A program made the translations under genes and the position numbers. DNA of 64,000 nucleotides from Mustelus asterias (Eukaryota). Location of the stretch: contig NW_027590150.1 in NCBI RefSeq assembly GCF_964213995.1, forward strand, positions 620,001 to 684,000. The letters run 5' to 3'. The notes beneath the pieces are model-generated. The model was not told where the DNA came from. It ran no database searches and was given only the letters and a program-made list of their open reading frames with translations. This document shows positions 4,889 through 61,379 of this stretch, piece after piece; position 1 is the stretch's first letter; the number at the start of each line of letters is the position of its first letter.

Positions 4889-5285
4889 TCACTTCTGAAC
4901 TCGCTGGTGTCTCAGCAGATTCGATAACTGAGTGAATCTTTTCCCACATGCAGAGCAGTTGAATGGCCGCTCTCCTGTGTGAACTCGCTGGTGTTTCTGT
5001 AGGTTGGATGACTTACTGAATCCCTTCCCACATTGAAAGCAGCTGTATGGTCTCTCCCCTGTGTGATCTCGCTGGTGTGTCTGCAGGCTTCATATCCGAG
5101 TAAATCCCTTCCCACACTGACAGCAGGTGAATGCACTCTCACCAGTGTGAACTTGCTGGTGTCTCTGCAGAGTGGATGAATCAGTGAATCCCTTCCCACA
5201 CACCCAGCAGGCGAACGGCCTCTCCCCAGTGTGGCTGTGCCGATGAGCTTCCAGTGGAGAGGGCACTTTGTATCTCTTCCCAGTG
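4889..5285 (-). pseudogene. Z1: C2H2 zinc-finger pseudogene (about 5 fingers, frameshifted, 5' end lost)
   Basis: [20 protein letters not shown]... in shifting frames; 3' region 4645-4890 matches that of Z2 (12841-13080). Confidence 0.85.
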
Positions 5286-5710
5286 TGTTGTGCCTGATTC
5301 AATCGACAAACAGTTTATTGAGTTACGCCAGCGGGGAGAAGCCACAGGGGCTGACCATGTGTAACTCCACCCAACAAAGAATATCATCAATTCTTATCCA
5401 GCTACTCAGCCCATCCCGGCTGGACACAATCCAATCAGAATGGTGATAGATTACATACATTATAGGTTCAATAAAATTAGTATCTGGGCATTATGGGGCT
5501 TTGTGATCATCTCATGGACAGGTGCCCCATCATGCTTTCCAGACCCCCCTTGGGGGGGGGGTCTTTCTTGGGCTTTCTTTGTACATCGACTCCCTTAGTT
5601 AGAAATGGGGCGGATTAAAAGTTCTCAAATGGACGTCAGCACCCTTCCTTTGTTTTAATCGAATGACCACATGGTCTGGGAATCATTTCTATTTAATACT
5701 CTCTCTTTTT
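5286..5710 (-). mobile_element. putative LTR with adjacent polypurine tract
   Basis: Minus strand ends ...caataaa...ggcacaaca (AATAAA then CA) at the Z1 break; the other end is preceded by aaaaagagagag (5699-5710), but starts TA rather than TG. Confidence 0.45.
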
Positions 5711-6320
5711 AAACTCTTTTCTTCAGTATCCAATTCCAGAATTTTCCTTTCCTTTGTGTGACTTGTGTCAGGAATAAATCTTTGGACCTGACAGGAAGTT
5801 TAACCCAAGATCAATCCAACACAGGATTGGTCAGAATCATTTCACATGTGTCAAATTTTAAAGAACCATTACAAATTAAAACTCTCATTCTCACATGGGT
5901 GAATTGTATCCGGATTAAAATTTCCAGATGTTTAGTAAAATATCCTGGAATCCTGTCTCTGGCCAGTAAATATGGCTCCAGGTTCATAACTTCTGAACAA
6001 AAAAAGTTTTATTGATCACACTTCCTTTTTTAAAAATCTGTTTGATTTAAATCACAGACAGAAAACCTCAAAGCTTGAAGCATTCAACCTACAAATATCA
6101 TCCATACACAAACAGAGAAACTTAGCATATGCTTTACAACAACAATGACCAAAATTAATTACTTAAGCGTTCTTGTGATCCTGTTTTTAAACTTCTAAAA
6201 ATGCCTTTAATTAAAGACTCAAGACAAGGTTAATTCCCCAGAAAGATAAACCTGAACAAATGTAGCCCAAAACAATGATAAAACACATCTACAAACATCC
6301 ACAAAAAACAAATGAAACAC

Positions 6321-6953
6321 ACAGGTGGAAAAAGTGGTGAAGGCATATGGCATGCTTGCTTTTATTGGATGGGGCATAGAGTATAAAAGTTGGCACATGA
6401 TGTTGCAGTTATATCGAACGTTGGTTAGGCCGCATTTGGAATACTGCGTCCAGTTCTGGTCACCACACTACCAGAGGACGTGGAGGCTTTGGAGAGAGTG
6501 CAGAAAAGGTTTACCAGGATGTTGCCTGGTATGGAGGGTATTAGCTATGAGGAGAGATTGAGTAAACTAGGGTTGTTCTCTCTGGAAAGAGGTTGAGGGG
6601 GCAACCTAATAGAAGTTTATAACATTACGAAGGGCATAGATAGGGTGAACAGTTGGAAGCTTTTTCCCAGGTCAGAAATGACAAACACAAGGGGTCACAA
6701 GTTCAAGGTAAGGGGGGCAAGGTTCAATACAGATATGCGGGGGACGTATTTTACACAGAGGGTGGTGGGGGCCTGGAATGCACTGCCAAGCAAGGTGGTT
6801 GAGGCAGACACGCTAGGATCATTTAAGACTTATCTAGATAACCACATGAACAGACTGGGAATAGAGGGATACAAACGGATGGTATGTTAGGAACACATGA
6901 TCGGTGCAGACTTGGAGGGCCGAAGGGCCTGTTCCTGTGCTGTATTGTTCTTT
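6321..6953 (+). mobile_element. CR1 LINE 3' fragment
   Basis: LYRTLVRPHLEYCVQFWSPHY, TRGHKFKV, FTQRVVGAWNALP and tail gggccgaagggcctgttcctgtgctgtattgttctttgt. Confidence 0.92.
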
Positions 6954-7210
6954 GTACATATTCCAGACTTTCACTCGACTGTCGGTGGATATCAGATTGG
7001 TATATTCCATTATAGGGTCTGTTCTGTGCTGTACTGTTCTATGTTCTATAACATCTTTGTTGATTTAAAACCCCAAACACGTTACACCCAAACACCGGCA
7101 AAATCTTTGTTCTTTATCTGGGGATAAAATTCTCAGTTATTCCAAATTCCTCCAGGCTATGCTTAATATTTCCACATTTAACTTATTCCCAGAAATCCTC
7201 AATTATAAAC

Positions 7211-7434
7211 TAAAATAGACACATGAGTTTCCGGGCAGTCTCAGGAATATGGTCAAGATAGTCCAGTCCCACAATGCCTCACATTCAATCTGCAGTCCTT
7301 CAATTATAACAGAATATGTGGCTGTATGTAGCTGCCTTGGCCATGGTCAACCCCAACCCCAAGGGTGCCTTCTTGAACTGCTGCAATGCCTGAGGTGTAC
7401 GTACACCCACAGTGCTGTTAGGAAGGGACTTCCA
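7211..7434. repeat. direct repeat X, copy 1 (copy 2 at 10980-11202)
   Basis: taaaatagacacatgagtttccgggcag...ggaagggacttcca occurs twice with about 6 substitutions. Confidence 0.9.
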
Positions 7435-9459
7435 TCGAAACACAGAAAAACTACAGCACAATACCAGCCCTTCAGCCCACAAAGTTGTGCCGAACATGTC
7501 CCTACCTTAGCGATTACTAGGCTTACCTATAACCCTCTATCTTACTAAGTTCCATGTACTTATCTAAAAGTCTCTTAAAAGACCCAATCGAATCCGCCTC
7601 CACCACCGTTGCTGGCAGCCCATTCCACGCACCCACCAACCTCTGAGTGAAAAACTTACCCCTGACATCTCCTCTGTACCTACTCCCCAGCACCTTAAAC
7701 CTGTGTGGTCTTGTGGCAACCATTTCAGCCCTGGGAAAAAGCCTCTGACTATCCACTCGATCAATACCTCTCAACATCTTATACACCTCTATCAGGTCAC
7801 CCCTCATCCTTCATGTCTCCAAGGAGAAAAGACTGAGCTCACTCAACCTATCCTCATAAGGCATGTCACCTAATCCAGGCAACATCCTTGTAAATCTCCT
7901 CTGCACCCTTTCTATGATTTCCACATCCTTCTGTAATGAGGCGACCAGAACTGAGCACAGTACCCCAAGTGTGGTCTGACCAGGGTCTTATATAGCTGCA
8001 ACATTATCTCACGACTCCTAAACTCAATTCCTCGATTGATGAAGGCCAGTACACCATCCACCTTCTTAACCACAGCCTCAACCTGCACAGCTGCTTTGAG
8101 CGTCTTACGAACTCTGACCCCAAGATCTTTCTGATCTTCCACTCTGCCAAGAGTCCTACCATTAATATTATATTCCGCCATCCTATTTGACCTGCCAAAT
8201 GAACCACCTCACACTTATCTGGGTTGAACTCCATCTGCCACTTCTCCACCCAGTCTTGCATCCTATCAATGTCTCGCTGCACCTTCTGACATCTCTCCAC
8301 ACTATCCACAACACCTCCAACCTTTGTGTCATCAGCAAACTTGCCAACCCATCCTTTCACTTCCTCATGGAATTGCGGATAGCGAAGAGCATTGTCGGGC
8401 AATACAGCAGGATATAGATAGGCTGGAAAATTGGGCGGAGAGGTGGCAGATGGAATTTAATCCGGATAAATGCGAAGTGATGCATTTTGGAAGAAATAAT
8501 GTAGGGAGGAGTTATACAATAAATGGCAGAGTCATCAGGAGTATAGAAACACAGAGGGACCTAGGTGTGCAAGTCCACAAATCCTTGAAGGTGGCAACAC
8601 AGGTGGAGAAGGTGGTGAAGAAGGCATATGGTATGCTTGCCTTTATAGGACGGGGTATAGAGTATAAAAGCTGGAGTCTGATGATGCAGCTGTATAGAAC
8701 GCTGGTTAGGCCACATTTGGAGTACTGCGTCCAGTTCTGGACGCCGCACTACCAGAAGGACGTGGAGGCATTGGAGAGAGTGCAGAGAAGGTTTACCAGG
8801 ATGTTGCCTGGTATGGAGGGTCTTAGCTATGAGGAGAGATTGGGTAGACTGGGGTTGTTCTCCTTGGAAAGACAGAGAATGAGGGGAGATCTAATAGAGG
8901 TGTACAAGATTATGAAGGGTATAGATAGGGTGAACAGTGGGAAGCTTTTTCCCAGGTCGGAGGTGACGATCACGAGGGGTCATGGGCTCAAGCTGAGAGG
9001 GGCGAAGTATAACTCAGACATCAGAGGGACGTTTTTTACACAGAGGGTGGTGGGGGCCTGGAATGCGCTGCCAAGTAGGGTGGTGGAGGCAGGCACGCTG
9101 ACATCGTTTAAGACTTACCTGGATAGTCACATGAGCAGCCTGGGAATGGAGGGATACAAACGATTGGTCTAGTTGGACCAAGGAGCAGCACAGGCTTGGA
9201 GGGCCGAAGGGCCTGTTTCCTGTGCTGTACTGTTCTTTGTTCATCCAGGTCATTTATAAAAATCACAAAGAGTAAGGGTCCCAGAACAGATCCCTGGGGC
9301 ACTCCACTGGTGACCGACCTCCATGCAGAATATGACCCGTCTATAACCACTCTTTGCCTTCTGTGGGCATGCCAGTTCTGGATCCACAAAGCAACGTCCC
9401 CTTGGATCCCATGCCCCCTCACTTTCTCAATAAGCCTTGCATGGGGCACCTTATCAAGT
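7435..9459 (-). mobile_element. CR1 LINE (5'-truncated, RT region), split by nested insertion 8369-9240
   Basis: RT motifs [22 protein letters not shown] (9245-9459) continue as EEVKGWVGKFADDTK (to 8368); ttcca at 7430-7434 and 9460-9464 is a likely TSD. Confidence 0.88.
8369..9240 (+). mobile_element. young CR1 3' fragment nested in the minus-strand CR1
   Basis: Uninterrupted ORF2 C-terminus to 9172, intact tail; tcat at 8365-8368 and 9241-9244. Confidence 0.92.
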
Positions 9460-9464
9460 TTCCA

Positions 9465-10979
9465 GTTACTGAGAGAGACAAGAGATGAAATTGCTGGGCC
9501 TCTCACAAAAATCTTTGTTTCTTCATTGGACACAGGTGAGGTCCCAGAGGATTGGAGGATAGCAAATGTGGTCCCGTTATTTAAGAAGGGTAGCAAGGAT
9601 AACCCGGGTAATTATAGGCCAGTGAACTTGATGTCCGTGGTAGGGAAATTGTTGGAGAAGATTCTTAGAGATAGGATCTATACACATTTAGAACTGAATA
9701 ATCTCATTAGCGATAGACAACATGGTTTTGTACAAGGGAGGTCATGCCTCATAAATTTGGTTGAGTTTTTTGAGGAGGTGACAAAAATGACTGACGAGGG
9801 AAGGGCCGTGGATGTCGTCGACATGGATTTTAGTAAAGCGTTTGACAACGTCCCTCATGGAAGGCTGGTGCAAAAGGTTAAATCTCATGGGATCAAAGGT
9901 GAACCAGCTAGATGGGTACAGAACTGGCTTAGCCATAGAAGACAGAGGGTAGCAGTGGAGGGGTCTTTTTCTGATTGGAGGTCTGTGACTAGCGGTGTTC
10001 TACAGGGCTCTGTACTGGGACCTCTGCTGTTTGTGATATATATAAATGATTTGGAGGAAGATGTAGCTGGTGTGATCAGTAAGTTTGCGGACGACACAAA
10101 GATTGCTGGAGTTGTGGATTGTGATGAACATTGTCAGAGAATACAGCAGGATATAGATAGGCTGGAAAATTGGGTGGAGAAATGGCAGATGGAATTTAAT
10201 CCAAATAAATGTGAAGTGATGCATTTTGGTAGATCTAATGCAGGGGGGAGCTATACAATAAATGGCAGAACCATCAGGAGTATAGACACACAGAGGGATC
10301 TGGGTGTGCAAGTCCACGATCCTTAAAGGTGGCAGCACAGGTGGAAAAGGTGGTGAAGAAGGCATATGGCATGCTTGCCTTTATTGGGGCATAGAGTATA
10401 AAAGTTGGCACATGGTGTTGCAGTTATATGGAACGTTGGTTCGGCCGCATTTGGAATACTGTGTCCAGTTCTGGTCACCACACTACCAGAAGGACGCGGA
10501 GACTTTGGAGAGAGTACAGAAAAGGTTTACCAGGATGTTGCCTGGTATGGAGGGTATTAGCTATGAGGAGAGATTGAGTAAACTCGGGTTGTTCTCCCTG
10601 GAAAGACGGAGGTTGAGGGGCGACCTAATAGAAGTTTACAAAATTACGAAGGGCATAGATAGGGTGAACAGTTGGAAGCTTTTTTCCAGGTCAGCAATGA
10701 CAAACACAAGGGGTCACAAGTTCAAGGTAAGGGGGGCAAGGTTCAATACAGATATGCGGGGGACGTATTTTACACAGAGGGTGGTGGGGGCCTGGAGTGC
10801 ACTACCAAGCAAGGTGGTTGAGGCAGACACGCGAGAAACATTTAAGACTCATCTTGATAACCACATGAACGACTAGGAATAGAGGGATACAAATGGATGG
10901 TCTAGTTAGGAACACATGATCAGCGCAGGCTTGGAGGGCCGAAGGGCCTGTTCCTGTGCTCTATTGTTCTTTGTGCTTT
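9465..10979 (+). mobile_element. CR1 LINE, RT domain plus 3' end, frameshifted
   Basis: [43 protein letters not shown]; frameshifts near 10320 and 10385. Confidence 0.93.
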
Positions 10980-11260
10980 AAAATAGACACATGAGTTTCC
11001 GGGCAGTCACAGGAATGTGGTCAAGATAGTCCAGTCCCACAATGCCTCACATTCAATCTGCAGTCCTTCAATTATAACAGAATATGTGGCTGTATGGAGC
11101 TGCCTTGGCCGTGGTCAACCCCAACCCCAAGGGTGCCTTCCTGAACTGCTGCAATGCCTGAGGTGTACGTACACCCACATTGCTGTTAGGAAGGGACTTC
11201 CAGCTACATATTCCAGACTTTCACTGGACTGTAGGTGAATATCAGATTGATATATTCCAT
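10980..11260. repeat. direct repeat X copy 2 followed by segment Y (also at 6955-7010)
   Basis: X matches 7211-7434; tacatattccagactttcact...tattccatt matches 6955-7010. Confidence 0.88.
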
Positions 11261-11768
11261 TCAACCACACCCAAGGTGAGTTATTCCAATTCCTTTATTG
11301 TCCAGGACAATACATTCACAATATCTTTCAAACAGAAATTAAACATTCCCATTTGATTTCAGACAGTAACATATTCTGTTAGTTTGTTCTTTATTGTCAA
11401 TGTCAGGCTGGGGTTGTTTTCCTTGGAGCAAAGGAGGTTGAGGGGAGATTTGATAGATGGGGGACAAGATTCTGACAGGTTTAGATAAGGTGGACAAAGA
11501 AAAGCTGTTCCCATTAGCTGATGGAACAAGGACGAGGGGGGACACAGATTTCTTGTTTTGGGTTAGAGATGCAAGGGAGGGGGGAGTGGGGGGCTGGGGG
11601 GGGGGGGGGGCAGTGGGGTGGGGGGGGAATTGAGGGGGGAGATGTGAGGAAGAATATTCTGATGCAGTGAATGGTAATGACCTGAAACTCGCTGTCTATG
11701 AGGGTGGAGGAAGTGGAGACAATAAACAATTAAAAAGGAAATTGGATGGGCATTTGGGATGTTCCAAA

Positions 11769-12838
11769 CAGAACGAAGAACAAAGAAAATTACAGCACAG
11801 AAACAAGCCCTTTGGCCCTCCAAGCCTGCAGCAACCATGCTGCCTGTCTGAACTAAAACCCCCTACCTTTCCGGGACCATATCCCTCTATTCCTATGCTA
11901 TTCATATATTTGTCAAGACACATCTTAAAAGTCACTATCGTATCTGCTTCCACTACCTTCCCCGGCAACGAGTTCCAGGCACCCACCACCCTCTGTGTAA
12001 AAAACCTGCCTTGTACATCTCCTTTAAACCTTGCCCCTCGCACCTTAAACCTATGCCCCCCAGTAACTGACTCTTCCACTCTGGGAAAAAGCTTCTGACT
12101 ATCCACTCTGTCCATGCCCCTCATAATCTTGGAGACTTCTATCAGGTCTCCCCTCAACCTCCGTCGTTCCAGTGAGAACAGACCAGGTTTCTCCAAACTC
12201 TCCTCATAGCTAATGCCCTCCACACCAGGCAGCATCCTGATAAATATTTTCCGTACCCTCTCCAAAGCCTCCACATTCTTCGGGTAGTGTGGTGACCAGA
12301 ATTGAACACTAGATTCCAAGTGCGGTCAAACTAAGGTTCTATAAAGCTGCAACATGACTTGCCAATTTTTAAACTCAATGCCCCGGCCGATGAAGGCAAG
12401 CATGCCATATGCTTTCTTGACTACCTTCTCCACCTGCATTACCACTTTCAATGACCTGTGTACCTGTACACCGAGATCCCTCTGCCTATGAATGCTCTTA
12501 AGGGTTCTGCCATTTACTGTATATTTCCATTCTGTATTAGACCTTCCAAAATGCATTACCTCACATTTGTCCGGATTAAACTTCATCTGCCATCTCTCCG
12601 CCCAATTCTCCAACTGCTCTATATCCTGCTGTATCCTTTGCCGTTCCCCATCGCTATCCGCAATTCCACCAACGTTTGTGTCGTCCACAAACTTACCAAT
12701 CAAACCAGTTACATTTTCCTCCAAATCATTTATATATATTACAAACAGCAAAAGTCCCAGCACTGATCCCTGCGGAATGTCACTTGTCACAGCCCTCCAT
12801 TCAGAAAGGTACCTTTGCACTGCCAACCTCTGTTTTCT
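11769..12838 (-). mobile_element. CR1 LINE 3' fragment
   Basis: ORFs 12326-12826 and 11696-12319 encode RT C-terminal motifs; the insertion is absent from the paralogous flank at 4527-4670. Confidence 0.92.
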
Positions 12839-13077
12839 TCTGACTAAATATCTCTAAACTTCCTAACACCCTGTCACTCTGTGATCCTTGTGACATTTGA
12901 AACCAGGTATTTGCAAAAAGACTCAAAGAGCATCAACCCACTGGAGGCTGAGACCAGCCAGTCCAGCACAAAGAAACCCTCTGACCCTTCCCATTGACCA
13001 ACTGTGAGAATGAACAAAATGCAATCCTGGATGTAATTGAGAGCAGGAACAATAACAGCAGAATCCAACCTCTGGAA

Positions 13078-15183
13078 TCACTCGTGAACTTGCTGGTGCC
13101 TCAGCAGCCGGGATGAAACGCTGAAACCCTTCCCACACACAGAGCAGGTGAACGGCCTCTCCCCAGTGTGAACTCGCTCGTGCGTCTGCAGGTTGGATAA
13201 CTGAGTGAATTCTTGCCCGCACTGAGAGCAGGTGAACGGCCTCTCCCCAGTGTGAACTCGCTGGTGTGTTTGCAGGTTGGAAAGCTGAGTGAATCCCTTC
13301 CCACACTGAGAGCAGGTGAACGGCCTCTCCCCTGTGTGAACTCGCTGGTGTGCCCGCAGGCTGGATGACTGAGTGAATCCCTGCCCACACTGAGAGCAGG
13401 TGAATGGTTTCTCCCCTGTGTGAACCCGCTGGTGTGTCCGCAGGTCGGATGACCGAGTGAATCCCTTCCCACACTGAGAGCAGGTGAATGGTCTCTCCCC
13501 AGTGTGAACTCGCTGGTGTGTCTGCAGGCTGGATAACCGAGTGAATCCCTTCCCACACTGAGGGCAGGTGAACGGTCTCTCTCCAGTGTGAACCCGCTGG
13601 TGTGTCCGCAGATGGGTTGACCGAGTGAATCCCTTCCCACACTGAGAGCAGGTGAACGGCCTTTCCCCAGTGTGAACTCGCTGGTGTGTCTGCAGGCTGG
13701 ATAACTGAGTGAATCCCTTCCCACACTGAGAGCAGGTGAACGGCCTCTCTCCAGTGTGAACTCGCTGGTGTCTCTGCAGGCTGGATAACTGAATGAATCC
13801 CTTCGCACACTGAGAGCAGGTGAATGGTCTCTCTCCGGTGTGAACTCGCTGATGTGTCTGCAAGTGGGATGACAGAGTGAATCCCTTCTCACATTGAGAG
13901 CAGGTGAACGGTCTCTCCCCAGTGTGAACTCGCTGATGTCTCTGCAGGTGGGATGACCGAGTGAATCCCTTCCCACACTGAGAGCAGGTGAATGGGGGCT
14001 TCTCCCCAGTGTGAACTCGCTGGTGTGCCCGCAGGTCGGATGACCGAGTGAATCCCTTCCCACACTGAGAGCAGGTGAACGGCCTCTCCCCAGTGTGAAC
14101 TCGCTGGTGTGCCTGCAGGTTGGATAACTGATTGAATCCCTTCCCACACTGAGAGCAGGTGAACGGCCTCTCCCCAGTGTGAATTCGCTGGTGTGTCAGC
14201 AGGCTGGATGACCGAGTGAATCCCTCCCCACACTGAGAGCAAGTGAATGGCCTCTCCCCTGTATGAACTCGCTGGTGTGTCCGCAGCTCGGATAACTGAA
14301 TGAATCCCTTCCCACACTGAGAGCAGGTGAATGGCCTCTCCCCAGTGTGAACTCGCTGGTGTCTCTGCAGGCTGGATAACTGAGTGAACCTCTTACCACA
14401 CTGAGAGCAGGTAAATGGCCTCTCTCCAGTGTGAACTCGCTGGTGTCTCTGCAGGCGGGATGACTGAGTGAATCCATCCCCACACTGAGAGCAGGTGAAC
14501 GGCCTCTCCCCAGTGTGAACTCGCTGGTGTATCTGCAGGCTGGATAAATGAGTGAATTCCTTCTCACACTGAGAGCAAGTGAACGGCCTCTCTCCAGTGT
14601 GAACTCGCTGGTGTCTCTGCAGGTGGGATGACTGAGTGAATCCCTCCCCACATTGAGAACAGGTGAACGGCCTCTCTCCAGTGTGAACTCGCTGGTGTGA
14701 CTGCAGGCGGGATGACCGAGTGAATCCCTCCCCACACTGAGAGCAGGTGAATGGCCTCTCCCCAGTGTGAACTCGCTGGTGTGTCTGCAGGCTGGATAAA
14801 TAAGTGAATTCCTTCTCACACTGAGAGCAAGTGAACGGCCTCTCTCCAGTGTGAACTCGCTGGTGTCTCTGCAGGCTGGATATCCGAGTGAATCCCTTCC
14901 CACACTGAGAGCAGGTGAAGGGCCTCTCCCCAGTGTGAACTCGCTGGTGTCTCTGCAGGTGGGATGACTGAGTGAATCCCTCCCCACATTGAGAGCAGGT
15001 GAACGGCCTCTCCCCAGTGTGAACTCGCTGGTGTCTCTGCAGGTTGGATAACTGACTGAATCCCTTCCCACATTGAGAGCAGATGAACGGCCTCTCCCCA
15101 GTGTGGCTGCGCCGATGAGCTTCCAGCTCTGATGGGGTTCCGTATCCCTTCCCACAGTCCGCACATTTCCATGGTTTCGCCAT
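13078..15183 (-). CDS. Z2: tandem C2H2 zinc-finger protein, 25 fingers, no effector domain
   Basis: 701-aa intact ORF, 25 CxxC-x12-HxxxH units with TGERPF linkers; start context accATGg; splice acceptor ttttccag near 15535. Confidence 0.93.
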
Positions 15184-15689
15184 GGTGCAGGTGTCCTTAC
15201 CTCACTCTTGAGTGGACAATTAGTTGAAACTTCGTCCACACACAGAACAAGATTACAGTCTCCACCTGCTGTGAATGGTGTGATATTTATTCAGACTGTG
15301 TAACTGGTTAAAGCTCTTTAGTCAGTGCATCGGAACACTCTCACTCGAGTGTGGCAGTGTGTTGACGCTTTTTCACTCACACTGACATTTCAAATCTTTT
15401 CAAATCGACAGACTGGACAATCATTTCTCCTTCTGGATTCAAAGTCCGATGATATTGAGGTCCCAAGGAATATGACTCTGTCAGATCTAGACGTGACGTT
15501 TGAGATTTCAGCCTGTGATTCCTCTTTCAATATCCTGGAAAATGAGTTTCCAAAAGTCATCAGTGTCAGTACAGGATAGAAATTCAGAACAGACAATTTC
15601 TATGGAACATTCTTTCCTCTCTCATTCAGAGGGTGGGTTCTCCCCCGCATATGCACAGCTTCCCCTCTCCCTCACACATTTTGCAGTCC

Positions 15690-16760
15690 CGGGCGGGGGG
15701 AGGGGGAGATCACCGAGCGGCTTCTCGCTCTGGCCAGAGCCGTCAGCCGGTTGCCTGGAAACCTTGGCTCGATGTGGTGTAGGGGGAGGGGAACAATGGG
15801 TGGGGGCAGGGCTCCCGGGTCCGCACGCCCGGGCCTGCACCATGGAACCCGGAGACATCACCGCGGAGCGCAGTGATTCCTATTGGCTGATTCAGGCAGG
15901 GTTCTATCGTAGCGTCACAATGCGGAAGTTGTCCAATGAGCTTCAGAGTGAAATTTCGCTCTCCGATCACATTCCATTGTGACGTCACACACTCACCCAT
16001 TCCATTGTGATGTCACACCCTCACCCATTCCATTGTGACCTCACACTCTCACCCATTCCATTGTGACGTCAGGGCTTCCCTCTCCGATCACAATCCCTGC
16101 CGGCCTCCCACATGCAGCCTCAATGGCGGCAGTCAGCCCGGGTCTAACACTACAAGCTGCCGCTCCATTTGGTACAAAGGGGGGACCGGGAAGTTCATTT
16201 CCGGGGTTTGGGTTTGAACAACATGTTTACAAAGTCTCTCCACCCACTCGCCACATTTATCATTCCCCGCGCGCCGCCCCCTACCTAGTATTGATCTCGC
16301 CTCCAAATTAAAACCGCCCGTCTACCCGTCGCCATTACCCGCACTGCGCATGCTTCAGGTCCCGCCTCTCATTCACTCCGATTGGTTGGAGGATCAGCCG
16401 CTCCCGCTCGGTCCTCCAGTCCCGCCCCTCGTTCACTCCGATTGGTTGGAGGACCAGCCGCTCCGGCTCGGTCGGCCAGTCCCGCCCCCTCTTCCTATTG
16501 GTCCGGAGCTGCCGTCAATCAGTCCCCGGGCATTGTGATGTGGAGCATGCGCAGTGTCATTGCTGTCCTTGGCGCTTGTTTGTCCCGGAGAAGCGGAGTC
16601 AGCGTTAGGCGGTGGCTGGGAGGATTTGGAAACACTTTGTGGATCCGCAAACCCTTCAGAATCATTGTCAGCTCCCTGGTTTGCAGCTGCGGGGCTTCTC
16701 CCTCCCTCCCTCCCTCCCGGGAACAGGCCCAGGTTAACGGCCCCATCCTGGCTCAGCCAC
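15690..16760. promoter_or_regulatory. CpG-island divergent promoter region for Z2 (-) and Z3 (+)
   Basis: CpG-rich; CCAAT/ATTGG boxes, GC boxes, TGACGTCA (15980, 16064), NRF1-like tgcgcatgc (16346), candidate donors ctcg|gtgatc (- near 15714) and cccag|gttaac (+ near 16733). Confidence 0.75.
15970..16071. repeat. 28-bp tandem repeat (3.6 copies) carrying CRE-like sites
   Basis: cattccattgtgacgtcacacactcacc unit at 15970, 15998, 16026, 16054. Confidence 0.9.
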
Positions 16761-16980
16761 TGGAGGATGGTTCACATCAGAGGATGGGGGAGGGGGACAA
16801 TAAATAAGAGGTTACACTTTGGCCTCAAATCAATGAGGACTCTGATCTCTGGGAAGGAAGGAAACCCTGGGAGGTGGGCGGGGAGGATTCACAAACACCC
16901 GCTGGAGGCCCCAACACCCCCAATAAGACCCATTGGTTTTATTGTCAGTCTGCAGACAGCAGCTGGAGAACTGAACCCAG

Positions 16981-17265: not shown

Positions 17266-17864
17266 AGAACTGAACCCAGACAGAGGAGAGGGAGGGAGAA
17301 AACTGGGAGTGGAGGGAAGAAATGGTGGAGATGTTGAGATGGGTTTGGATTTCAGTCCAGGGGAGGAGGTAGAGTGTGTGGGACGGGGATTTATAGATTT
17401 GGGGGAACAAGAGAGGAAAATATGTTCCAGAGAAACTATGAATTGTCTGTTCAGAATTTCTATCCTGCACTGACAGTGATGGTATTTGTAAACTGTTTTT
17501 GCAGGGTATTATGAAGCAGGATTTACAGATGTGAAACTCAAACCAAACTTCACATCAAGATCTGTTTCAGTGATTTGATTCATCAGAAACTGAATATCAT
17601 CAGCCTTTGTCTACAGAAGGAGAAATGTTCATTCTGTCTGCGGGCAAAGATTTCAAACATCAGTGTGACTGAAAAAGCACCTAGACACACAAACACACCT
17701 GAGAGTTTCCAATGTGCTGAATGTGGAAAGTGGTTTAACAAGTCTGAAAAATAATCACATCATTCTAACTGAGTAGTGACCCGACACATATTCTGTGTAA
17801 ACGAGGCTTCAACTCATCATCCAACCTGGAGTCACATGAGGACACCCGCAGCACAGAGAAACCA

Positions 17865-29469: not shown

Positions 29470-29710
29470 ATCAGTTTCAAATTTCTATCCTGTGCTTACA
29501 TTCATTGCTTTGATAGATGTTTTTATTGACAAGGGATTAGAATGGAAGGATTTTCAGTCAGAAACATCTTGATTCATTCGGACACGACTATCATCAGTGA
29601 TCAAATGTCAGAGGAACACTGATGCCCTGTTCAAAAAGATTTCAATCATCAGTGCGAATGGAAAAGTTGTGTGATGCACATTCCCAAGAGAGAGAGAGAG
29701 ATTTCCAGGA
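29470..29710 (+). pseudogene. Z5: remnant of a subfamily A zinc-finger exon 2 (5' part only)
   Basis: aatttctatcctgtg...gacaagggattagaatggaaggattttcag...aagatttcaatcatcagtgcgaatggaaaag matches the 5' end of exon 2 of Z3/Z8. Confidence 0.65.
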
Positions 29711-36800: not shown

Positions 36801-37397
36801 TCTGTTTTTAACTGGGTCCTAGTGCCCGAGTCACATAAAAGGATCAGTCACACTGGTCAGAACTTTCTGGTTCAGTTCGGAAGGTTCCCTTTGGTTTTGT
36901 TGATGCTTGGTTGTTGATTTTTGTCTTTCAGTTCGTTTGGACCATATGATTGGAGGGAATAAGAAAGGAAAGAATGTTCCATCCGAACTAGAATTGTCTG
37001 TTCTGAATTTCTATCCTGTATTTACACTGATAACTTCTGTAAACTCCTTTTACAGGGGATTAGGATGGGAGGATTGACAGGTGGGAAACTTAAATCAAAC
37101 ATCACATTGAGATCTGACAGTCATTCGATTCATCAGGACCTGAATATCAATGTGGAAGGAGAAATGTTTGTTTGTTCTGTCTGTGGGAAAAGATTTCAAA
37201 CATCAGTGTGACTGGAAAAGCAGCGAGACACACACACCCGAGTGACAGCGTTCCAGTGAACTGACTGTGAAAAGAGCTTGAACCAGTTACACAGCCTGAA
37301 AAAACATCACACCATTCACAGCAGGGAGGAACCGTACATGTGCAGTGTGTGTAGTCAACTGATCATCAACCTGGAGAGACACAAGGATACTGGCACC

Positions 37398-43782: not shown

Positions 43783-43887
<105 letters not shown>

Positions 43888-48974: not shown

Positions 48975-49670
48975 CAACATACAAATTAGGAGCAGGAGTA
49001 GGCCACTCGGCCCCTCTAGCCTGTTCCACCACTCAATAAGACCATGGTTGATCTGATTGTAACCTCAAATCCACATTCCTTTTACCCCTTGTTAATCAAG
49101 AATCTATCCAGCTCTGCCTTCAAAATATTTAAAGACACTGCTTCCAATGCTTTTTGAGGAAGACCCAGAGACTCGCTGCCCTCTAAGAGAAAACATTTAT
49201 TTCTCATCTTTGTGTCAACTGAGCAACATTTTATTTTTCAATAATGTATTCAATAATAAGAATTAGATTCGCTCACATGAGAAATCATCCTCTTTAAATC
49301 GATCCTGTCAAAATACCTCAGGAACTGAAAAAGATTTGAATCAAATTGCCTCTTACTCTTTTAAGCTCCAGCAGATACAAGCTCAGGCTACTCAGTCTTT
49401 CCTCATAAGAGAACCTCCCATTTCTGGTATAGTCTAGTAGACCTTCTCTGAACTGCTTCTAACACATTTACATTCTTCTTTAAATAAGGAGACAAATACT
49501 TTAATCATATTCCAAATCGCCAGTGTTCTGTAAAGCAGAAGCATAACCTCTGTTTTGTATTCAATTCCCCTCACAATAAACAATAACATTATGTTAACTT
49601 TCCCAATTACTTGCTGTACCCTTCTACTAGCCTTTTGTGACTCATGAACCAGGACACTCAGAATCCTCTG
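48975..49670 (-). mobile_element. old CR1 3' fragment
   Basis: HESQKAS-VQQVIGK-N-ML-FI-RGIEYK motif and CR1 tail. Confidence 0.75.
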
Positions 49671-49679
49671 ACGGGGAAC

Positions 49680-49860
49680 TGAATTTCTCCTCACAGTCTC
49701 CACATTTACACGGTTTCTCCCTAATGTGACTGTGGATGTGAATGGTGCTGTTTCCTTCCATGTTCAAAATTCTCTGCTGTTAAGGTTACGATAAATTGTG
49801 CAGCTCCATCCAATCCTGATATTCTGTGTGAGTTTCCTGACCCCAAATCCTCCCCTTCTA
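49680..49860 (-). pseudogene. Z10: 5' remnant of a subfamily B zinc-finger exon
   Basis: ttttgaacATGgaaggaaacagcaccattcac...gagaaaccgtgtaaatgtggagactgtg, cut by CR1. Confidence 0.7.
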
Positions 49861-49978
49861 AGCCAATTATATTAACACCTATAACAGAGCTGGAGTTATT
49901 TTTCAATTCAGCAGAAACAGACACAAACAAACATGGTTAAGTCTGAATATGATTAACAGCAAAATCCAATCACAATAG

Positions 49979-50563
49979 TTACTTGTGAATTTGCTGGTGT
50001 TTTCGCAGCCTGGATGAAGTAATGTATCCCTTCCCACACTGGGAGCAAGTGAATGGCCTCTCTCCAGTGTGAGTTCGCTGGTGATTTAGCATCGTGCATG
50101 AGGTAATGAATCCCTTTCCACACACAGAGCAGGTGAACGGCCTCTCCCCAGTATGAATTCGCTGGTGTTTCAGCAGCATGGCTGAGGTAGTGAAACCCTT
50201 CCCACACTGGGAGCAGGTGAACGGCCTCTCCCCAGTGTGAACTCGTTGATGATTTAGCAGCGTGGATGACTGAGTAAATCCCTTCCCACACTGAGAGCAG
50301 GCGAATGGCCTTTCGTCAGTATGAATTCGCTCGTGTATCACTAGGTTGGATGACTGATTGAATTCCTTCCTACACACAGAACATGTGAACGGTCTCTCCC
50401 CTGTGTGAATTCGCTGGTGTTTCAGCAGATGGGATGAGGTAGTGAATCCCTTCCCACATTGAGAGCAGGTGAACGGTCTCTCCCCGGTGTGAATGCGTCG
50501 ATGAGTTTCCAGGTGGGATGGGTAATCAAATCCCTTCCCACAATCCTCACATTTCCAAGCCAT
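49979..50563 (-). CDS. Z11: C2H2 zinc-finger protein, 7 fingers (subfamily B, original ATG lost, new ATG at 50563)
   Basis: ORF open 49979-50680; MEGKS start reads ATA; first in-frame ATG is gagATGg (EMAWKC). Confidence 0.8.
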
Positions 50564-52229
50564 CTCCCTGTTGTGACTGCAATTATGTCCTGAAAGGCCA
50601 GATGATTGGGTGAAGTCTTGTCCACAAACAGAACACAGTTTCTCTCCACTGTGAATGGTGCTTTTTCCTTCTATATTCAAAATACAATGATATTCAGGTT
50701 ACAATAAATTGGTCGACTCAATCAGGTCTGAGATCATGTTTGATTTCTGTTTACCAACTGCAAATCTTCCTCTCCTAAAAGGTTGTGAAATTGATTTAGA
50801 ACAGAAAAAAACTCATTTTCTCCTCATGCAACTGGCAAACATTATCTTATCTATGGAAAGAGACATAAAGTTAAAAGGCAAAAGGGATCAAAGGATATGG
50901 GGGTTTGGGCTATTATCATAATGAATAGAAGAGCAGGCTTGAAGGGCCAAATGGCCTACTCCTGATCCTATTTTCTATGTTTCTATGCAACTCAATGTCT
51001 ATGAGGATGGTGGAACAGTAAACAAATGGTTTCAAAATGAGATTGGATCGGCACACAAAGGAAATGAACATGCTGCACTAATGGAGATATAGAGGGGAAT
51101 GGGGCTGAGTGGATCACTCTGCAGAAAGTTGACATGGACTCAAGTTCCTTCTGAAGTGTAGAGTCCATGATTGGAAATGTATAACATAGCTGCAGTACTA
51201 GATTACAAGAATGGAAATAATAAATACATTATTTTACTGAAATATAAATATTATACCTAATACGTACTATAAAACAACACTGGATATATCTCTGTTGTTA
51301 CGTCCCAAGCCAACTGATAACCTTATAATAAACACATTCCTGACAATTCCAAGGATAAAATGAGTGAGGTTTCACTTTTTAAAATGTTTCATTGTAAAAA
51401 TCAAAATAAAAGCAACATAAATGAATCAGGCATTGACAGACAAATAGTATTTGAATAGATGGGATACTTTTACTTCAATAAAACCAGTCTCAACAAAATC
51501 ACCAGCAATTTCTCCCTTAGAATTCGTGGCACTAATTCAATTTACCACAACTCTCTGTATTTCCCAGAGAGAGAGAAAAAACACAGGAGAATGGCACTCA
51601 GTCAAAATGCTCATTTGGCGAGTCGGGTACAGATATGATGGCCCATATATATGGCCCATATATATTTTATATATTTGCATATTTAATGGATAATAAATGT
51701 GTGTAATATACAGCACTCTGTTATGTGATTGGCAAGATAGGGATCAGTGAGGAAGAACTTTTTTTAGGCCCTGGAACTTGCTGCTGGTGAGAGTGGTGCA
51801 ACTGGAGATAATCAGCGATTTCAAAATGAAATTTGATGGACACTTGAAGGAAATAAACTTTCAGGGAAATGGGGATATTGAGGGGTATGGAATTGACTGA
51901 TTTTCTGTACAGAGAGTTGGTATGGACTTGAGTTGCCAAATAGATTCATTTTGTGCCACAGTGACTCTATGGCTTGAAATATAAAACATAGCAACGCTGC
52001 TATATATTTCAAGACAAGAAATAATTATAATGAACTTCAGAGAATCATAAATGATTTTGTATGTGCCATATGACCACACTATCTCTGTCCTCATTTGATT
52101 TACTGTTCCTTTAAACGTCATCCATCTCTTGGGAAAACGTTTTAATTGTGAGCATTAGGTAGGAGGCCATCCTATTAACCAGACAAATAAATGTGTCAAA
52201 CTGAGAGAGCTAAAGGATATCTTTGAGAG

Positions 52230-52930
52230 AAAAAGGAAAAGATACCTGGACCTTGTCCTGCTCCTAATTCCGATGTTCGTCTGTTTCCTTTCCAGAGTCT
52301 ACAGCCTCCCTTGATTCACTTCCTTTCCCTTCAGTTGCTGCAAGTCCCCAATTTCCCCCAGAATGAGGAAAGAAATGGAAAGGGGGAAACATTGATTTCC
52401 TCCCAGATGTTGTCCAGAGGCGGAAGCTTCACTCTGAAGCTCATTGGACAACTTCCGCATGTGACGTCACAAAGGAGCCCCCCTGAATCAGCCAATAGGA
52501 ATCAGTCTGCTTCGCGGTGACGTCATGGTTTTCCAGTGCGCAGGCCCGGCCCGCAAACGCGGGCCCCGCTCCCGCCCATTGTTCCCCTCCTCCTGCACCT
52601 CCTCGAGCCAAGGTTTCCAGGCAACCGGCTGGCGGCTCCGGCCAGAGCGAGAAGCCGCTCGGTGATCTCCCCCTCCCCCCTCTCTCCACGGCGGCTGCTG
52701 CTCCAAAAAGAGACCCGAGAGCGACCGCTGGCGGCAGCCGCACTGCGCCTGCGCCGGACAGCTCGGCTCAGCAGCGCTCTCTGCGCCTGCTCCGGACAGC
52801 TCGGCTCAGCAGCACTCTCTGCGCCTGCTCCGGACAGCTCGGCTCAGCAGCGCTCTCTGCGCCTGCTCCGGACAGCTCGGCTCAGCAGCGCTCTCTGCGC
52901 CTGCGTGCTGGGCTGCCAGCTGAGGGAGTG
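52230..52930. promoter_or_regulatory. CpG-island promoter upstream of Z11
   Basis: 52290-52380 matches exon 1 of Z4/Z9; 52428-52680 is the reverse complement of 15695-15952; TGACGTCA twice, CCAAT, GC boxes. Confidence 0.75.
52743..52905. repeat. 38-bp GC-rich tandem repeat, 4.3 copies
   Basis: ctgcgcctgctccggacagctcggctcagcagcgctct at 52743, 52781, 52819, 52857, 52895. Confidence 0.93.
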
Positions 52931-55400: not shown

Positions 55401-55419
55401 GCTGTCAGGGAATTTGTAT

Positions 55420-56080
55420 AGATATTTAATAAGAAAAGTTAACAAAGTGAGCATTGGTCCCATAGAAAGTGATCTGGAGAATTGGTTGTGGAAAGTAGGG
55501 CTATGGTGGATGAACTAAACAGATATTTTGCACCTGTCTTTGCTATAGACAGCACAAGTAACCTCCCAGAGATAGTTGTAAATCAGGAAATGGAAGAGAT
55601 GGTGCAAATCAGGAAAATTACGAACAGTGGTATTGAGCACATTGTTGGGTGTGTGCGCTGACAGGTTCTCTGGTCCGAATGGACTTCTCCCTAAGGTCTT
55701 GAAAGAAGAGGCTACTGAGATCATTGATGCAGTCATTTTAATTTTACAAAATTTCAGCGATTCAGGGAAAAATGGCAAATGTTTTATTATTCAAAAAGGA
55801 AGAGAGAAAGTGGGAAAGTTCAGGCCAGTTAGCCGAACATTTGTCACAGGGAAAATGTTAAAAGCCATTCTCTTCCTCTGCAGTGGAAGCAGAGTCTTTG
55901 AATATTTTTAAGACAAAGCTAGATAGATTCCTGACTAACAAGAGGGTGAAAGGTTATGGGATGTAGGCAGGAATGTAGAGTTGAGGTTACAATCAGATCA
56001 GCCATGAGCTTACTGAATGGTGGAGCAGGCTCGAGGGGCCGAATGACCTACTTCTGCTCCTAATTTTTATGTTCGTATGC
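55420..56080 (+). mobile_element. old internally deleted CR1 whose tail truncates Z12
   Basis: SGPNGLLPKVLKE-A-EI-DA motif; tail gagcaggctcgaggggccgaatgacctacttctgctcctaatttttatgttcgtatg abuts the last finger. Confidence 0.78.
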
Positions 56081-56602
56081 TCGCTGGTGTTTCAGCAGCT
56101 GGGATGACTGAGTGAATCTCTTCCCACACTCAGAGCAGGTGAATGGCCTCTCCCCAGTGTGAGTGCGCTGGTGTACAGTGAGATGAGATGATTGTCTGAA
56201 CCCAGTCCCACATTGAGAGCACCTGAATGGTCTCTCATCAGTGTGAACACGTTGATGGTACATTAGTTCCTGACAATTTTTATAACACTTCCCGCAGTCC
56301 AGACATTTAAAAGGTCTGTCCTCACTGTGAACACTTTGGTGTGTCATCAGGTTAGATGAATTAATGAATCCCTTCCCACACACACAACAGGTGAATGGCC
56401 TCTGCCCTGTGTGACCACGCTGATGAATTTCCAGCTGTGATGGGTAATTGAATCTCTTTCCACAGTCCCCACATTTCCACGGCTTCTCCCTGTTGTGACT
56501 GCATTTGTGTCTTGACAGGCCGGATGATTGGCTGAAGTCTCGCGCACACACAGAACATGTGTACGATTTCTTCCCACTGTGAATGGTGCTTTTTCCTTCC
56601 AT
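56060..56602 (-). CDS. Z12: C2H2 zinc-finger protein, 5 fingers plus a truncated sixth (subfamily B)
   Basis: aacATGgaaggaaaa start; stop codon lies in the antisense CR1 tail (HQRAYEHKN*). Confidence 0.75.
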
Positions 56603-57689: not shown

Positions 57690-58250
57690 AAAAATGGCAT
57701 CTGCGCATGCGCCCTATTGCGAGTGCCCCCGCTAAAGATGACAGCTGCGCATGCGTCTTGCTGCGACCACCCGAAAAAGATGGCGGCGGTTAACCCGGGT
57801 CTGTAACTGAGAGAAAGTTACGGCCCTGCTCTGTGCAAAGGGCCGGGGACCATCCCAATTACCGGTAGGTTCTTTTTCAAGGATTCGCGGTTTATGTAAC
57901 GTCTTTACGAAGTCTCGCAAACCGCCCCCCTGATCCATCGCTCCCTCTGCCTCGCCATTCCCACCTTTTCTCATTGTGGATCTGAGCAAGATTCGGCTCC
58001 ACCGCCATTAATCACACTGCGCATGCTTCATTTATACCCCAGCCCCGCCCCTCAATAACTGATTGGAGGACCAGCTGCTTCCGCTCCGTCCTTTAGCCCC
58101 GCCCCCTCTTCCTATTGGTCCGGAGCTGCTGTCAATCAGTCCCTGGGCATTGTGAGCGAAACAAACCCTTCAGAATCATTGTCAGCTCCCTGGTTTGCAG
58201 CTGCGGGGCTTCTCCCTCCCTCCCTCCCGGGAACAGGCCCAGGTTAACGG
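57690..58250. promoter_or_regulatory. CpG-island divergent promoter for Z12 (-) and Z13 (+)
   Basis: tgcgcatgcgc (57702), tgcgcatgcgt, aagatggcggc (near 57778), ATTGG and GC boxes; 58010-58710 is paralogous to 16335-17545. Confidence 0.75.
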
Positions 58251-59371
58251 CCCCATCCTGGCTCAGCCACTGGAGGATGGTTCACATCAGAGGATGGGGG
58301 AGGGGGACAATAAATAAGAGGTTACACTTTGGCCTCAAATCAATGAGGACTCTGATCTCTGGGAAGGAAGGAAACCCTGGGAGGTGGGCGGGGAGGATTC
58401 ACAAACACCCGCTGGAGGCCCCAACATCCCCAGTAAGACCCATTGGTTTTGTCAGTCTGCAGACAGGAGCTGGAGAACTGAACCCAGACAGAGGAGAGGG
58501 AGGGAGAAAACTGGGAGTGGAGGAAAGAAATGGTGCAGATGGTGAGGAGGAGGGAGAGTGTGTGGGACGGGGATTTACAGATTTGAGGGAACAAGAAAAA
58601 AAAATGTTCCAGAGAAACTAGAATTGTCTGTTCAGAATTTCTATCCTGGACTGACAGTGATGGATTTTTGAAACTGCTTTTACAGATGAGGATTTACACA
58701 CAGGAAACTCAAACCAAGACAAATGTCACTTTGTGATTTCTATCGTGCATTGACAGCAATGGGTTTTGTAAACAGAGATTGAAGGGGTTGAACCATTTTT
58801 CTTTAGAAAATAAGGGATTACGCAGTGACCCGATAGTCTTTTAAAATTATCAGATGCTTGGACAGGGGAGATGTGGAGAAAATACTTCCATTTGAGAGAG
58901 TTCAAAATTAGCGACCATCAATAAGCAAAGAGTGATAAATACATGATAGTTACTAATCAATCCAAGATGAAGCTGAGGATAAATTTCTTTACTCACAGGT
59001 TGAGAATGTGAAATTCATTAATACAGGAAGCAGTTGAGGAAATTATTGAGCTGTTGTCAGAAGGAAAACATAAGACCATAAAATATAGGATTCAGCTATT
59101 TGGCCCATTGTGTCTGCTCCACTATTCAATCATGGCTGATAAGTTTATCAACCCCATTCTCCTGCTCTTTCTCTGTAACCTTTGATCCCTTTACCAATCA
59201 AGAACCTTTTTATCTCTTTGAAATGTACTCAATGACCTTGCCGCCACAGTCTTCTATGGCACTGAATTTCACAGATTCACCATCCTCTGGCTGAAGAAAT
59301 TCATGACAAACACATCAGAGAAAAAGGAATAGAAAGATCAGCTGAAAGATTGAGATGTGGTAGGTAGAATT

Positions 59372-59680
59372 TATAGTGTTCCTACAATGTAGGAGGCCAT
59401 TTGGCCCATTGAGTCTGCACAACCACAATCCCACCCTGACCCTATACTCATAACCCCACTTATTTAACCTGGTAGTCCCCCTGACAGTAAGGGACAATTT
59501 AGCATGGACAATCAACCTAACCTGCACATATTTGGACTGAGGGGGCAAACCGGAGCACCCAAAGGAAATCCACACAGACACGGGGAGAATGTGCAAACTC
59601 CACACAGACAGTCACCTGAGGCTGGAATCAATCCCAGGTCCCTGGCATGTGAGGCAGCAGTGCTAACCATTGTGCCGCCC
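59372..59680 (-). mobile_element. HE1-type SINE
   Basis: Reverse-complement head, core and CR1-like tail. Confidence 0.85.
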
Positions 59681-60230
59681 ATGATGGGATAGGAGGAGAT
59701 GTGTGTCGAGTATAAACAACAGCAGGTTAGTTGGACCAAATGGACTGTTTGTGTCTGATAAGTTTGAAGTAATTCAATTTAAACTCCTTTCGCAGAATAT
59801 TTGCAGATTGGAAATTCAAACTGAATATCATGTCAAGATTGGTCAGAGTCACTTGATTCATCAGGAGCTGATCATCATCAGCCTATGAATGTGGAAGGAG
59901 AAATGTTGTCTGTTTTGTCTTTGGGAAATGATTCAAATATCAGTGTGACTGGAAAAGAACCGAGACACACATCTAAGCGATTTTCCGCAGTTTTCTGGAA
60001 CAGAGCTTTAACCAGTCACACAGCATGAAAAGAAACTGCACATTTACATCAGGAGACACCTTACTCGTGTTGTATTTGTGGATCAGGCTTCAACTGATTA
60101 CCATATGAACAAGGAACAGCAACAGGCCATTCGGCCCCACCAGCCTGCTCTGTCATTTAATAACATCATGGCTGATCTGATAGTGACTTCAAATCTCACC
60201 CCACCTACGCCCAATAACCTGTCGTTAACC

Positions 60231-61379
60231 ATGGAGAAACCATGGAAATGTGGAGACTGTGGGACGGGATTTAATTACCCGTCTGAATTGGAAACTCATC
60301 GACGTATTCACACTGGGGAGAGACCGTTCACCTGTCCCGTGTGTGGGAAGGGTTTCACTCAGTCATCCAGCCTCTACACACACCAGCATGTCCATACCGG
60401 TGAGAGGCCATTTACTTGTCTTCAATGTGGGAAGGGATTTAATGCTTTATCAAACCTCCAGACTCACTACCAAGTTCACTCTGATCAGAGACCGTTTAAA
60501 TGTTGTGACTGTGGGAAGAGTTTTAAAAGTAAAACGGATTTATTGATTCACCAACGCACTCACACTGGGGAGAGGCCATTCATCTGCTCCGTGTGTGGGA
60601 AGGGATTCACTCAGTCATCCCACCTCCTGACACACCAAAGTGTTCACACTGATCAGAGACCATTTAAATGTTCTGACTGTGAGAAGAACTTTAAAAGTAA
60701 AAAGGATTTACTGATTCATCAACGCACTCACACTGGGGAGAGGCCGTTCATCTGCTCCGTGTGTGGGAAGGGATTCACTTGTTCATCCCAGATCCTGAAA
60801 CACCGATTTGTTCACACTGATCAGAGACCTTTCAATTGTTCTAAATGTGAGAAAACATTTAAAAGCAAAAAGGATCTTCTGAAACACCAAAACACTCACA
60901 CTGGGGAGAGGCCGTTCATCTGCTCTCTCTGTGGGAAGGGATTCACTCGATTAGCCCACCTTCTGAGACACTATCGAGTTCACACTGGGGAGAGGCCGTT
61001 CACCTGCCCTGTGTGTTGTCAGGAATTCATTGATACATCTGACCTTCTGATACACCGGCGAGTTCACACTGGAGAGAGACCTTACACTTGCCTCCGGTGC
61101 AGCAAGAGATTCACTCAGTCATCCCACCTGACTACACACCAACTTGTTCACACTGATCAGAGACCTTTTGAATGTTCTGATTGTGAGAAGAGATTTAAAA
61201 GTAAACAGAATCTGCTGAAACACCAGCGAGTTCACACTGGGGAAAGGCCGTTCAACTGCTCCATGTGTGGGAAGGGATTCGCTCAGTCAAACAACCTGCT
61301 GAAACACCAGCAAGTTCACAGGCGACAGCAGGGGTTGGATTCTGCTGTTATTGCTGCTGTTCATCACACCCAGGACTGA
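60231..61379 (+). CDS. Z13: C2H2 zinc-finger protein, 13 fingers plus C-terminal tail [19 protein letters not shown]
   Basis: Intact ORF from accATGg at 60231 (in-frame upstream ATG at 60105); closest paralog of Z3. Confidence 0.9.

Follow-up and report, generated by a model that had tools for sequence, protein, structure and literature searches.

A tandem C2H2 zinc-finger gene cluster without a known effector domain, in birth-and-death turnover in the shark Mustelus asterias

How might a large family of zinc-finger genes act when its members carry no recognizable effector domain? The question is raised by 64,000 nucleotides of DNA from the shark Mustelus asterias (NCBI RefSeq assembly GCF_964213995.1, contig NW_027590150.1, positions 620,001 to 684,000 of the forward strand; hereafter the window), which hold a tandem cluster of C2H2 zinc-finger (ZNF) genes. 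Across animals, the number of ZNF genes correlates with the number of retroelements, and in zebrafish the knockdown of FiNZ-ZNF genes derepresses transposable elements (PMC10547256). Shark ZNF abundance is noteworthy because a loss of KRAB-domain gene families has been reported for cartilaginous fish (PMC8455134), and yet ZNF counts in this group are among the largest of the rows compared: Supplemental Data 1 of PMC10547256 gives, in eight rows, 475 to 3,586 ZNF open reading frames (ORFs) for seven chondrichthyan assemblies, with 3,586 in Scyliorhinus canicula against 1,710 in zebrafish. The accessible main text of that paper makes no mention of sharks, and in the accessible text of bioRxiv 10.1101/2025.06.08.657570 the terms zinc, ZNF and C2H2 do not occur. 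Elsewhere, ZNF clusters with many recent duplicates are described on catshark chromosomes 13 and 17 (PMC11979771), and TRIM33 is treated together with KRAB-like and FiNZ proteins (PMC11603059). The literature covered, which mostly excludes subscription papers, yielded no description of the present shark family, only ORF counts and one passing mention.

Loci were called with two hidden Markov models (HMMs), one for the finger and one for the leader that precedes the fingers, and labelled Z1 to Z13 by mapping them onto the numbering of an earlier note on this DNA. A six-frame scan of the window gave 118 finger-pattern matches and ten main arrays, and the two HMMs together delimit 13 paralogous loci, of which only Z2, Z6 and Z13 are clean. 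The fingers read C-x2-C-x12-H-x3-H with TGEKP-like linkers, the pattern of tandem C2H2 (Kruppel-type) ZNF genes, and every array is contiguous, with 84-bp spacing and no intron; clustering and an array held in a single last exon are also the architecture of KRAB zinc-finger genes. The domains that would complete such an architecture are missing. No KRAB, SCAN, BTB, ZAD or SET domain was matched in the six array frames scanned, nor in 148 of the 159 upstream sense-strand frames of at least 36 amino acids (11 regions; the other 11 frames, in repeat pieces, were excluded), so that in these frames there is neither the N-terminal KRAB of KRAB zinc-finger proteins, nor a SCAN domain upstream of the arrays as in SCAN zinc-finger proteins, nor the PR/SET domain of PRDM9-like genes. 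Four weak Pfam matches belong to unrelated families and all fall below cut-offs. On every test run, the cluster is without a known effector. The count of 13, the one-exon arrays and the effector-less architecture described in the earlier note are thus all borne out. SCAN-like matches, often with stops, are dispersed in the genome, with at least 146 listed from 150 of 604 candidates scored and none of them on contigs C118 or C71; we take them to be probably gag remnants of long terminal repeat (LTR) elements.

Upstream of the fingers, the last exon has ceased to code. The family has two start types, MEKPWKC and MEGKS, with a common splice acceptor and spacer upstream of both, and in MEKPWKC-type genes the spacer is followed by dead fingers; in Z2 this exon-2 leader occupies 15184-15536 on the minus strand, with the predicted acceptor at 15536/15537. 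Among 28 non-redundant genes aligned out of 72 with the anchor, the leader has no codon periodicity and no third-position excess, and it contains 75 non-triplet against 17 triplet indels in 361 columns, where the coding part has 7 against 5 in 270 columns. Two stops recur, TSV* in 26 of the 28 genes and GFN* in 25. The leader is therefore a decayed coding spacer with dead fingers, now non-coding. The MEKPWKC ATG lies within ACCATGG in 23 of the 28 genes, a context that the anchor pattern itself favours; in MEGKS-type genes a stop usually precedes the ATG, and in a minority the spacer is open into the fingers. A two-exon transcript read from an internal family start codon is very probably the arrangement that these signals reflect. 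Two further candidate features of the leader found no support: an RNA stem (RNAalifold returned no consensus structure, with one double change among 12 pairs in the 28 genes) and a conserved 15-codon upstream ORF, whose ATG is present and in frame in only 14 of the 28. Genes of the Z3 type (17850-19249 in the window) lack the family ATG, and in 11 of 17 copies they keep an open frame of 13-14 fingers with the C-terminal tail, which a near-cognate start or a recent loss of the ATG could explain; because of these copies, open frames are no proof of translation from the family ATG.

The fingers, for their part, are held by selection. In the Z13 subfamily, 26 distinct full-length copies of 382 amino acids (15 of 40 fetched copies were excluded for stops or deletions) give a ratio of non-synonymous to synonymous change, omega, of 0.31 by distinct changes (85 non-synonymous, 74 synonymous; p ~1e-12) and of 0.27 pairwise, and the proportion of non-synonymous sites changed (pN) is 0.01 at structural positions, 0.11 at contact positions and 0.14 in the tail. 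The finger arrays are under purifying selection at an omega of about 0.3, which maintains the scaffold of tandem C2H2 genes. Matters differ for the 102 finger units of the Z2 type, where a tree-based count finds 5.2 synonymous changes per site and non-synonymous rates of 4.6 at contact codons and 1.2 at the other codons. A pairwise excess of pN over the synonymous proportion (pS) had pointed to positive selection in these arrays and was lost on the tree; for contact codons the codon model improved on omega = 1 by only 0.6 log units. Neither of the two subfamilies tested, Z13 and Z2-type, gave evidence of positive selection on the residues that contact bases, as in FiNZ-ZNF genes: the Z2-type contact residues are free to vary, and the data do not indicate that they are driven.

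Such genes are numerous, and they turn over. The genome-wide count of starts for which the earlier note had called comes, by exact matches in this genome of 3.68 Gb, to 2,082 for a 25-mer of the MEKPWKC start and 298 for a 21-mer of the MEGKS start, with none for the reversed controls. Around the window, 304 kb contain 49 loci with a leader, with 15 (MEKPWKC) and 2 (MEGKS) exact matches and 22 clean ORFs of at least five fingers; extrapolation yields roughly 7,000 loci and 3,000 intact ORFs, figures that uncollapsed haplotypes may inflate. One contig, C1973, is ~100% identical to the window over 7.9 kb. Clusters are patchy, since fingers occur in 7 of 20 evenly spaced 10-kb samples of contig C71; on contig C118, the 160 kb next to the cluster (420001-580000) are free of fingers, and the cluster begins sharply ~39 kb ahead of the window. 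Also on C118, 764896-783704 and 860455-878434 are near-identical copies of ~18 kb in inverted orientation, with three to four ZNF loci, that lie 100 kb apart. The 40 Z13 paralogs fetched, 93-100% identical, comprise 29 full-length copies, 8 with an early stop and 3 that have lost internal fingers. Most of them share the 5' module described below and at most ~4 kb of gene, not the neighbours, and duplication of the window as one block was rejected. The Z2-Z3 pair has been copied as a block of at least 8 kb, and blocks of ~8 kb occur at 99% identity or more. The first two fingers of Z2 recur identically in at least 19 genomic places, and Z2 copies range from 11 to 26 fingers, with the frame kept in 18 of 20; Z2 itself (13078-15183) looks like a minisatellite array that gains and loses whole fingers among near-identical copies. 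Family members are born by duplications of 4-10 kb and by gain and loss of whole fingers, and they die by stops, slippage and repeat insertion. The fates of the Z13 paralogs, the Z2/Z3 block copies and the 304-kb census bear out the birth-and-death turnover proposed earlier, in which recent duplicates and copy-specific pseudogenes stand side by side with purifying selection.

What would such proteins do? An anti-transposon role is plausible by analogy with known ZNF systems, and we regard action of the family on transposons or repeats as an evenly balanced prospect. Our preferred explanation, which we hold tentatively, is that finger-only proteins act on repeats, by docking a partner or by plain occupancy. 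In this explanation, a family of thousands of shark tandem C2H2 genes, with nothing but fingers in their open frames and a predicted start at an internal ATG, would use its variable fingers to bind repeat-derived DNA, and the part of a KRAB-type domain would fall to the constant first finger, as the dock for a co-repressor. The first finger is marked by a Trp before its first Cys; D is present in 27, P(+1) in 27 and E(+5) in 25 of 29 non-redundant copies, positions -1, 3 and 6 vary, and the next finger varies at the non-contact positions that are nearly fixed in the first. As the only family-wide constant protein surface found, it is the best candidate for a partner dock, and these residues lend some support to partner binding through this atypical finger. 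If the family does act on repeats, docking of a cofactor there, rather than plain occupancy, is possible, but we would not count on it.

Several observations weigh against this explanation. Descent and gene conversion could by themselves give the constancy of the first finger, and the non-coding leader is similarly well kept, with a divergence of 0.11-0.18. Contact residues are conserved in Z13 (pN 0.11 against a pS of 0.35) and in Z2-type arrays change at the synonymous rate (p = 0.77 for 4.6 versus 5.2), and the presence of dozens of nearly the same specificities suggests dosage or drift sooner than an arms race. Of the 49 loci in the 304 kb no more than 22 are clean, and the open Z3-type frames persist in 11 of 17 copies with no family ATG. 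Finally, the genome-wide search for KRAB, which gave no match, was insensitive, its control remaining silent; a PRDM9 with KRAB has been reported in a chimaera (PMC5519329).

The first alternative, unlikely although it deserves serious weight, is that the targets of these finger-only proteins are host genes, or else the ZNF clusters themselves, where the proteins would compete or weakly activate and transposons would play no particular part; neuronal roles have been proposed in this way for cephalopod C2H2 expansions. The cephalopod expansions have been linked to brain expression (PMC12513265), and the conserved contacts of the 26 Z13 copies fit this alternative. Divergent CpG-island promoters and a common 5' module likewise suggest co-regulation. 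Z2 and Z3 have a CpG-rich divergent promoter region in common (15600-16600), and the 5' module, a promoter and first-exon region of 370-560 bp, reaches 98% identity among Z13 paralogs, against ~94% for their synonymous sites and leaders. Of its 1,132 candidates in the genome, the best 40 are without exception on cluster contigs. Such likeness could come from conversion or from strong constraint. Short tandem repeats with units of 28, 60 and 38 bp lie within the promoters (15970-16071, 16359-16488 and 52743-52904), the 60-bp unit carrying CCAAT and GC boxes, and some contigs from other organisms match the module with 0-1 differences over 150-185 nt. Against the host-regulator alternative stand the thousands of loci, over half of them broken in the sample, and the free shuffling of fingers, which are unusual for developmental regulators.

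A second alternative, also unlikely, sees the family as a by-product of a recombination-prone region, in which unequal crossing-over and conversion produce mostly redundant copies, and selection only purges damaged products or holds dosage. The ~8-kb blocks of near identity and the near-neutral contact residues of the Z2 subfamily speak for this alternative, and so does the behaviour of the 5' module, which is 99% identical ahead of arrays only 63% identical (15 pairs) and has pieces inverted between paralogs. It sits poorly, however, with an omega of about 0.3 and almost untouched Cys, His, Phe and Leu, with the persistence of the family across shark orders, and with a shortage of repeat insertions at the arrays. 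About 37% of the window matches repeats taken from ZNF-free stretches, and repeat blocks adjoin arrays in 17 of 188 cases against 54.8 expected, a threefold shortage, or in 15 of 144 against 45.7 when blocks are merged more loosely; although two breaks in the window itself escaped the repeat library, and copies made by duplication cannot be counted as independent, this is a large deficit. Because arrays carry fewer adjoining repeats than chance would give, the breaks at repeats are best read as passive losses and not as a sign of conflict.

Third, a novel or distant effector might be encoded in an upstream exon and spliced to the spacer in some members or tissues, which we consider improbable. 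The spacer does read as though it had once been an in-frame linker, and the acceptor before it is of phase 2, like that of KRAB and FiNZ genes; it is the MEGKS-type genes with an open spacer that would allow such a product. In the MEKPWKC type an upstream exon is unable to join the array in frame, because a frameshift and the two common stops intervene, and none of the 148 upstream frames matched a Pfam effector. A profile search with the spacer gave 28 matches among 1.84 billion proteins (a word-based search gave none, and a search with full-length Z13 was swamped by unrelated ZNFs). Of 26 profile-matched proteins inspected, 24 carry the spacer and two are unrelated; upstream of it the 24 look mutually unrelated by inspection, with no common N-terminus evident. 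The 19 that were looked up include 15 with a species name, all from sharks, of eight species; two spacer proteins, one from a sawshark, end at the TSV* position, and a hexanchiform protein bears the family's first finger. Since spacer, TSV* end and first finger recur across shark species, the ancestral N-terminus was likely lost long ago. One sawshark gene model (P0049) combines the spacer with a histone H2A and a family array; it is probably mis-joined, and suggests that histone genes lie among these clusters.

Possible transcript evidence on the same exon comes from contigs of sequencing runs of other organisms that we guess to be RNA. Contigs from two runs diverge from the genomic sequence exactly at the predicted acceptor, with loose ends at 15536, and a third run has a contig that joins 15536 to the other strand of a GC-rich 5' region, at 15772. 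Another contig begins to align at 17504 and leaves 79 letters unplaced, and other contigs of the same runs read across the acceptor. These ends are a weak hint of splicing in paralogs and no proof that the present genes are expressed. No contig of these runs joins an exon 1 of the window to its own exon 2, none of the three loose-end motifs lies beside a donor in the fetched loci, and a simple donor score found no strong donor common to the loci.

The C-terminal tail of 17-19 amino acids, which the earlier note had put forward as a possible effector, was followed through 135 matches, of which 108 were parsed (about seven rows wrongly) and 73 are distinct, the open class being mostly Z13 copies. 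A stop comes first in 44 of the 73 distinct tails and in 7 of the 9 window loci that retain one. Where the tail is translated, change is equal at the three codon positions (0.71/0.59/0.71), with no third-position bias, and in Z13 its pN is 0.138 against a pS of 0.146 (6 and 2 changes). That the tail acts as the effector, translated directly or through stop-codon readthrough, is very improbable, for although most genes have a tail that can be recognised, still in frame beyond the stop in 17 of 20 scorable cases, it usually lies behind a stop and is free of coding constraint where translated, its 12-nt deletions fit slippage in a short repeat, and second stops and frameshifts occur.

The window is laid out as follows. 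Z1 (4889-5283, minus strand) consists of the four 3' fingers of a Z2-type gene, 82% identical to the Z2 3' end, with an internal stop and its 5' part lost at an LTR-like repeat (5284). The repeat block that begins there (5284-12844) has an LTR-like piece to ~6316 and nested fragments of long interspersed nuclear elements (LINEs) with reverse transcriptase (RT). Z2 (13078-15183, minus) is an intact ORF of 701 amino acids with 25 fingers that are 87% identical in DNA. On the plus strand, the Z3 copy of the 5' module, its promoter and first-exon region (16414-16980), is near-identical to copies ahead of unrelated arrays, and Z3 exon 2 (17505-19249) has a leader and 15 canonical fingers, lacks the ATG of the family start, is frameshifted at ~18830 and keeps its tail in frame. 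Z4 (25705-26919, minus) has an ATG, 13 canonical fingers and an altered C-terminus. Z5 (29487-29700, plus) retains the acceptor, spacer and first dead finger only, with no array, and directly 3' of it lies an RT fragment (29730-30530, plus), presumably Penelope-like by its motif. Z6 (31129-32403, minus) is an intact MEGKS-type gene of 14 fingers with the stop right after the last, Z7 (~33760-34330, minus) a pseudogene with several frameshifts, and Z8 (37056-38781, plus) is interrupted within the first finger of exon 2 by a LINE fragment of 650 bp (37419-38073). Z9 (43780-44958, minus) has an ATG and 11 canonical fingers, a premature stop in the second-last finger and two fingers beyond that stop. 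Z10 (~49660-49864, minus) is a remnant, with the spacer and half of one finger left where a LINE 3' fragment cuts in; Z11 (49979-50698, minus) has 8 fingers and ATA at the family start, the next ATG (50563) giving 7 fingers; and Z12 (56060-56602, minus), with 5-6 fingers, is cut by a LINE 3' fragment at 55880-56082. A second copy of the 5' module (58162-58530, plus), 97% identical to the Z3 copy, precedes Z13 (60231-61379, plus), an intact ORF of 382 amino acids with 13 fingers and a 19-residue tail. Upstream of Z13 are a second, shortened copy of acceptor and spacer (58642-58738) and, just before the ATG, a short LINE 3' fragment (60102-60219); the ORF is still open.

The earlier note had at least five loci, Z1, Z5, Z8, Z10 and Z12, broken at or next to repeats; all five are confirmed, but the damage had been undercounted, for Z3, Z7 and Z9 are damaged as well, Z11 has ATA and Z4 an altered end. 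The many retroelement clades of which it spoke are borne out in part: Pfam supports RT and endonuclease fragments (RVT_1 and Exo_endo_phos only), and CR1, Penelope, HE1-type short interspersed nuclear element and LTR are names we presume from the motifs. Rfam and ARAGORN gave no match in the window.

A bolder version of our preferred explanation would make several thousand finger-only proteins a shark genome-defence system, in which the N-terminus became 5' untranslated region before the shark orders split, the first finger serves as the universal dock for a silencing complex, and promoter modules and arrays are shuffled separately; this version is decidedly unlikely. If it is true that finger-only proteins restrain transposons, then sequence-specific silencing in jawed vertebrates needs no separate effector module. 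Direct tests are within reach in this family, which has a single constant finger, a few large subfamilies of known fingerprint and common sequences that permit multi-gene knockdown.

How, then, does the cluster compare with known systems? It shares with the KRAB zinc-finger genes of tetrapods and lobe-finned fish a gene set that is clustered and specific to its lineage, one last exon for the whole array, TGE[RK]PF linkers of the canonical form, variable contacts and many pseudogenes; it differs in having no KRAB, a non-coding N-terminal part of the last exon and a predicted start at an internal ATG. With the cyprinid FiNZ-ZNF genes (Wells et al. 2023, PMC10547256) it has in common a large, KRAB-free fish family, a two-exon layout, predicted in the shark, and clustering. 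FiNZ genes, however, carry a conserved acidic domain of 28 residues in a first exon that codes, 4 of their 7 clades are under positive selection, and knockdown supports their role; in the shark family neither a coding first exon, for which no FiNZ profile was run, nor positive selection was found. Z2-type arrays resemble those of PRDM9 (PMC5519329) in being homogenised and in gaining and losing whole fingers; most have 0.36-0.41 of their amino-acid diversity at four contact positions, below the 0.46-1.0 in the complete rows reported for PRDM9, a rough comparison in that the Z2 statistic used four positions and dropped the first finger, and unlike PRDM9 they come without SET, SSXRD or KRAB. The coleoid cephalopods, an unrelated lineage, have likewise expanded C2H2 genes into hundreds to thousands of lineage-specific tandem copies outside the KRAB system (PMC12513265). 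The shark cluster is no KRAB or SCAN family; it belongs, as a variant, with the lineage-specific tandem ZNF expansions seen in tetrapods, cyprinids and cephalopods.

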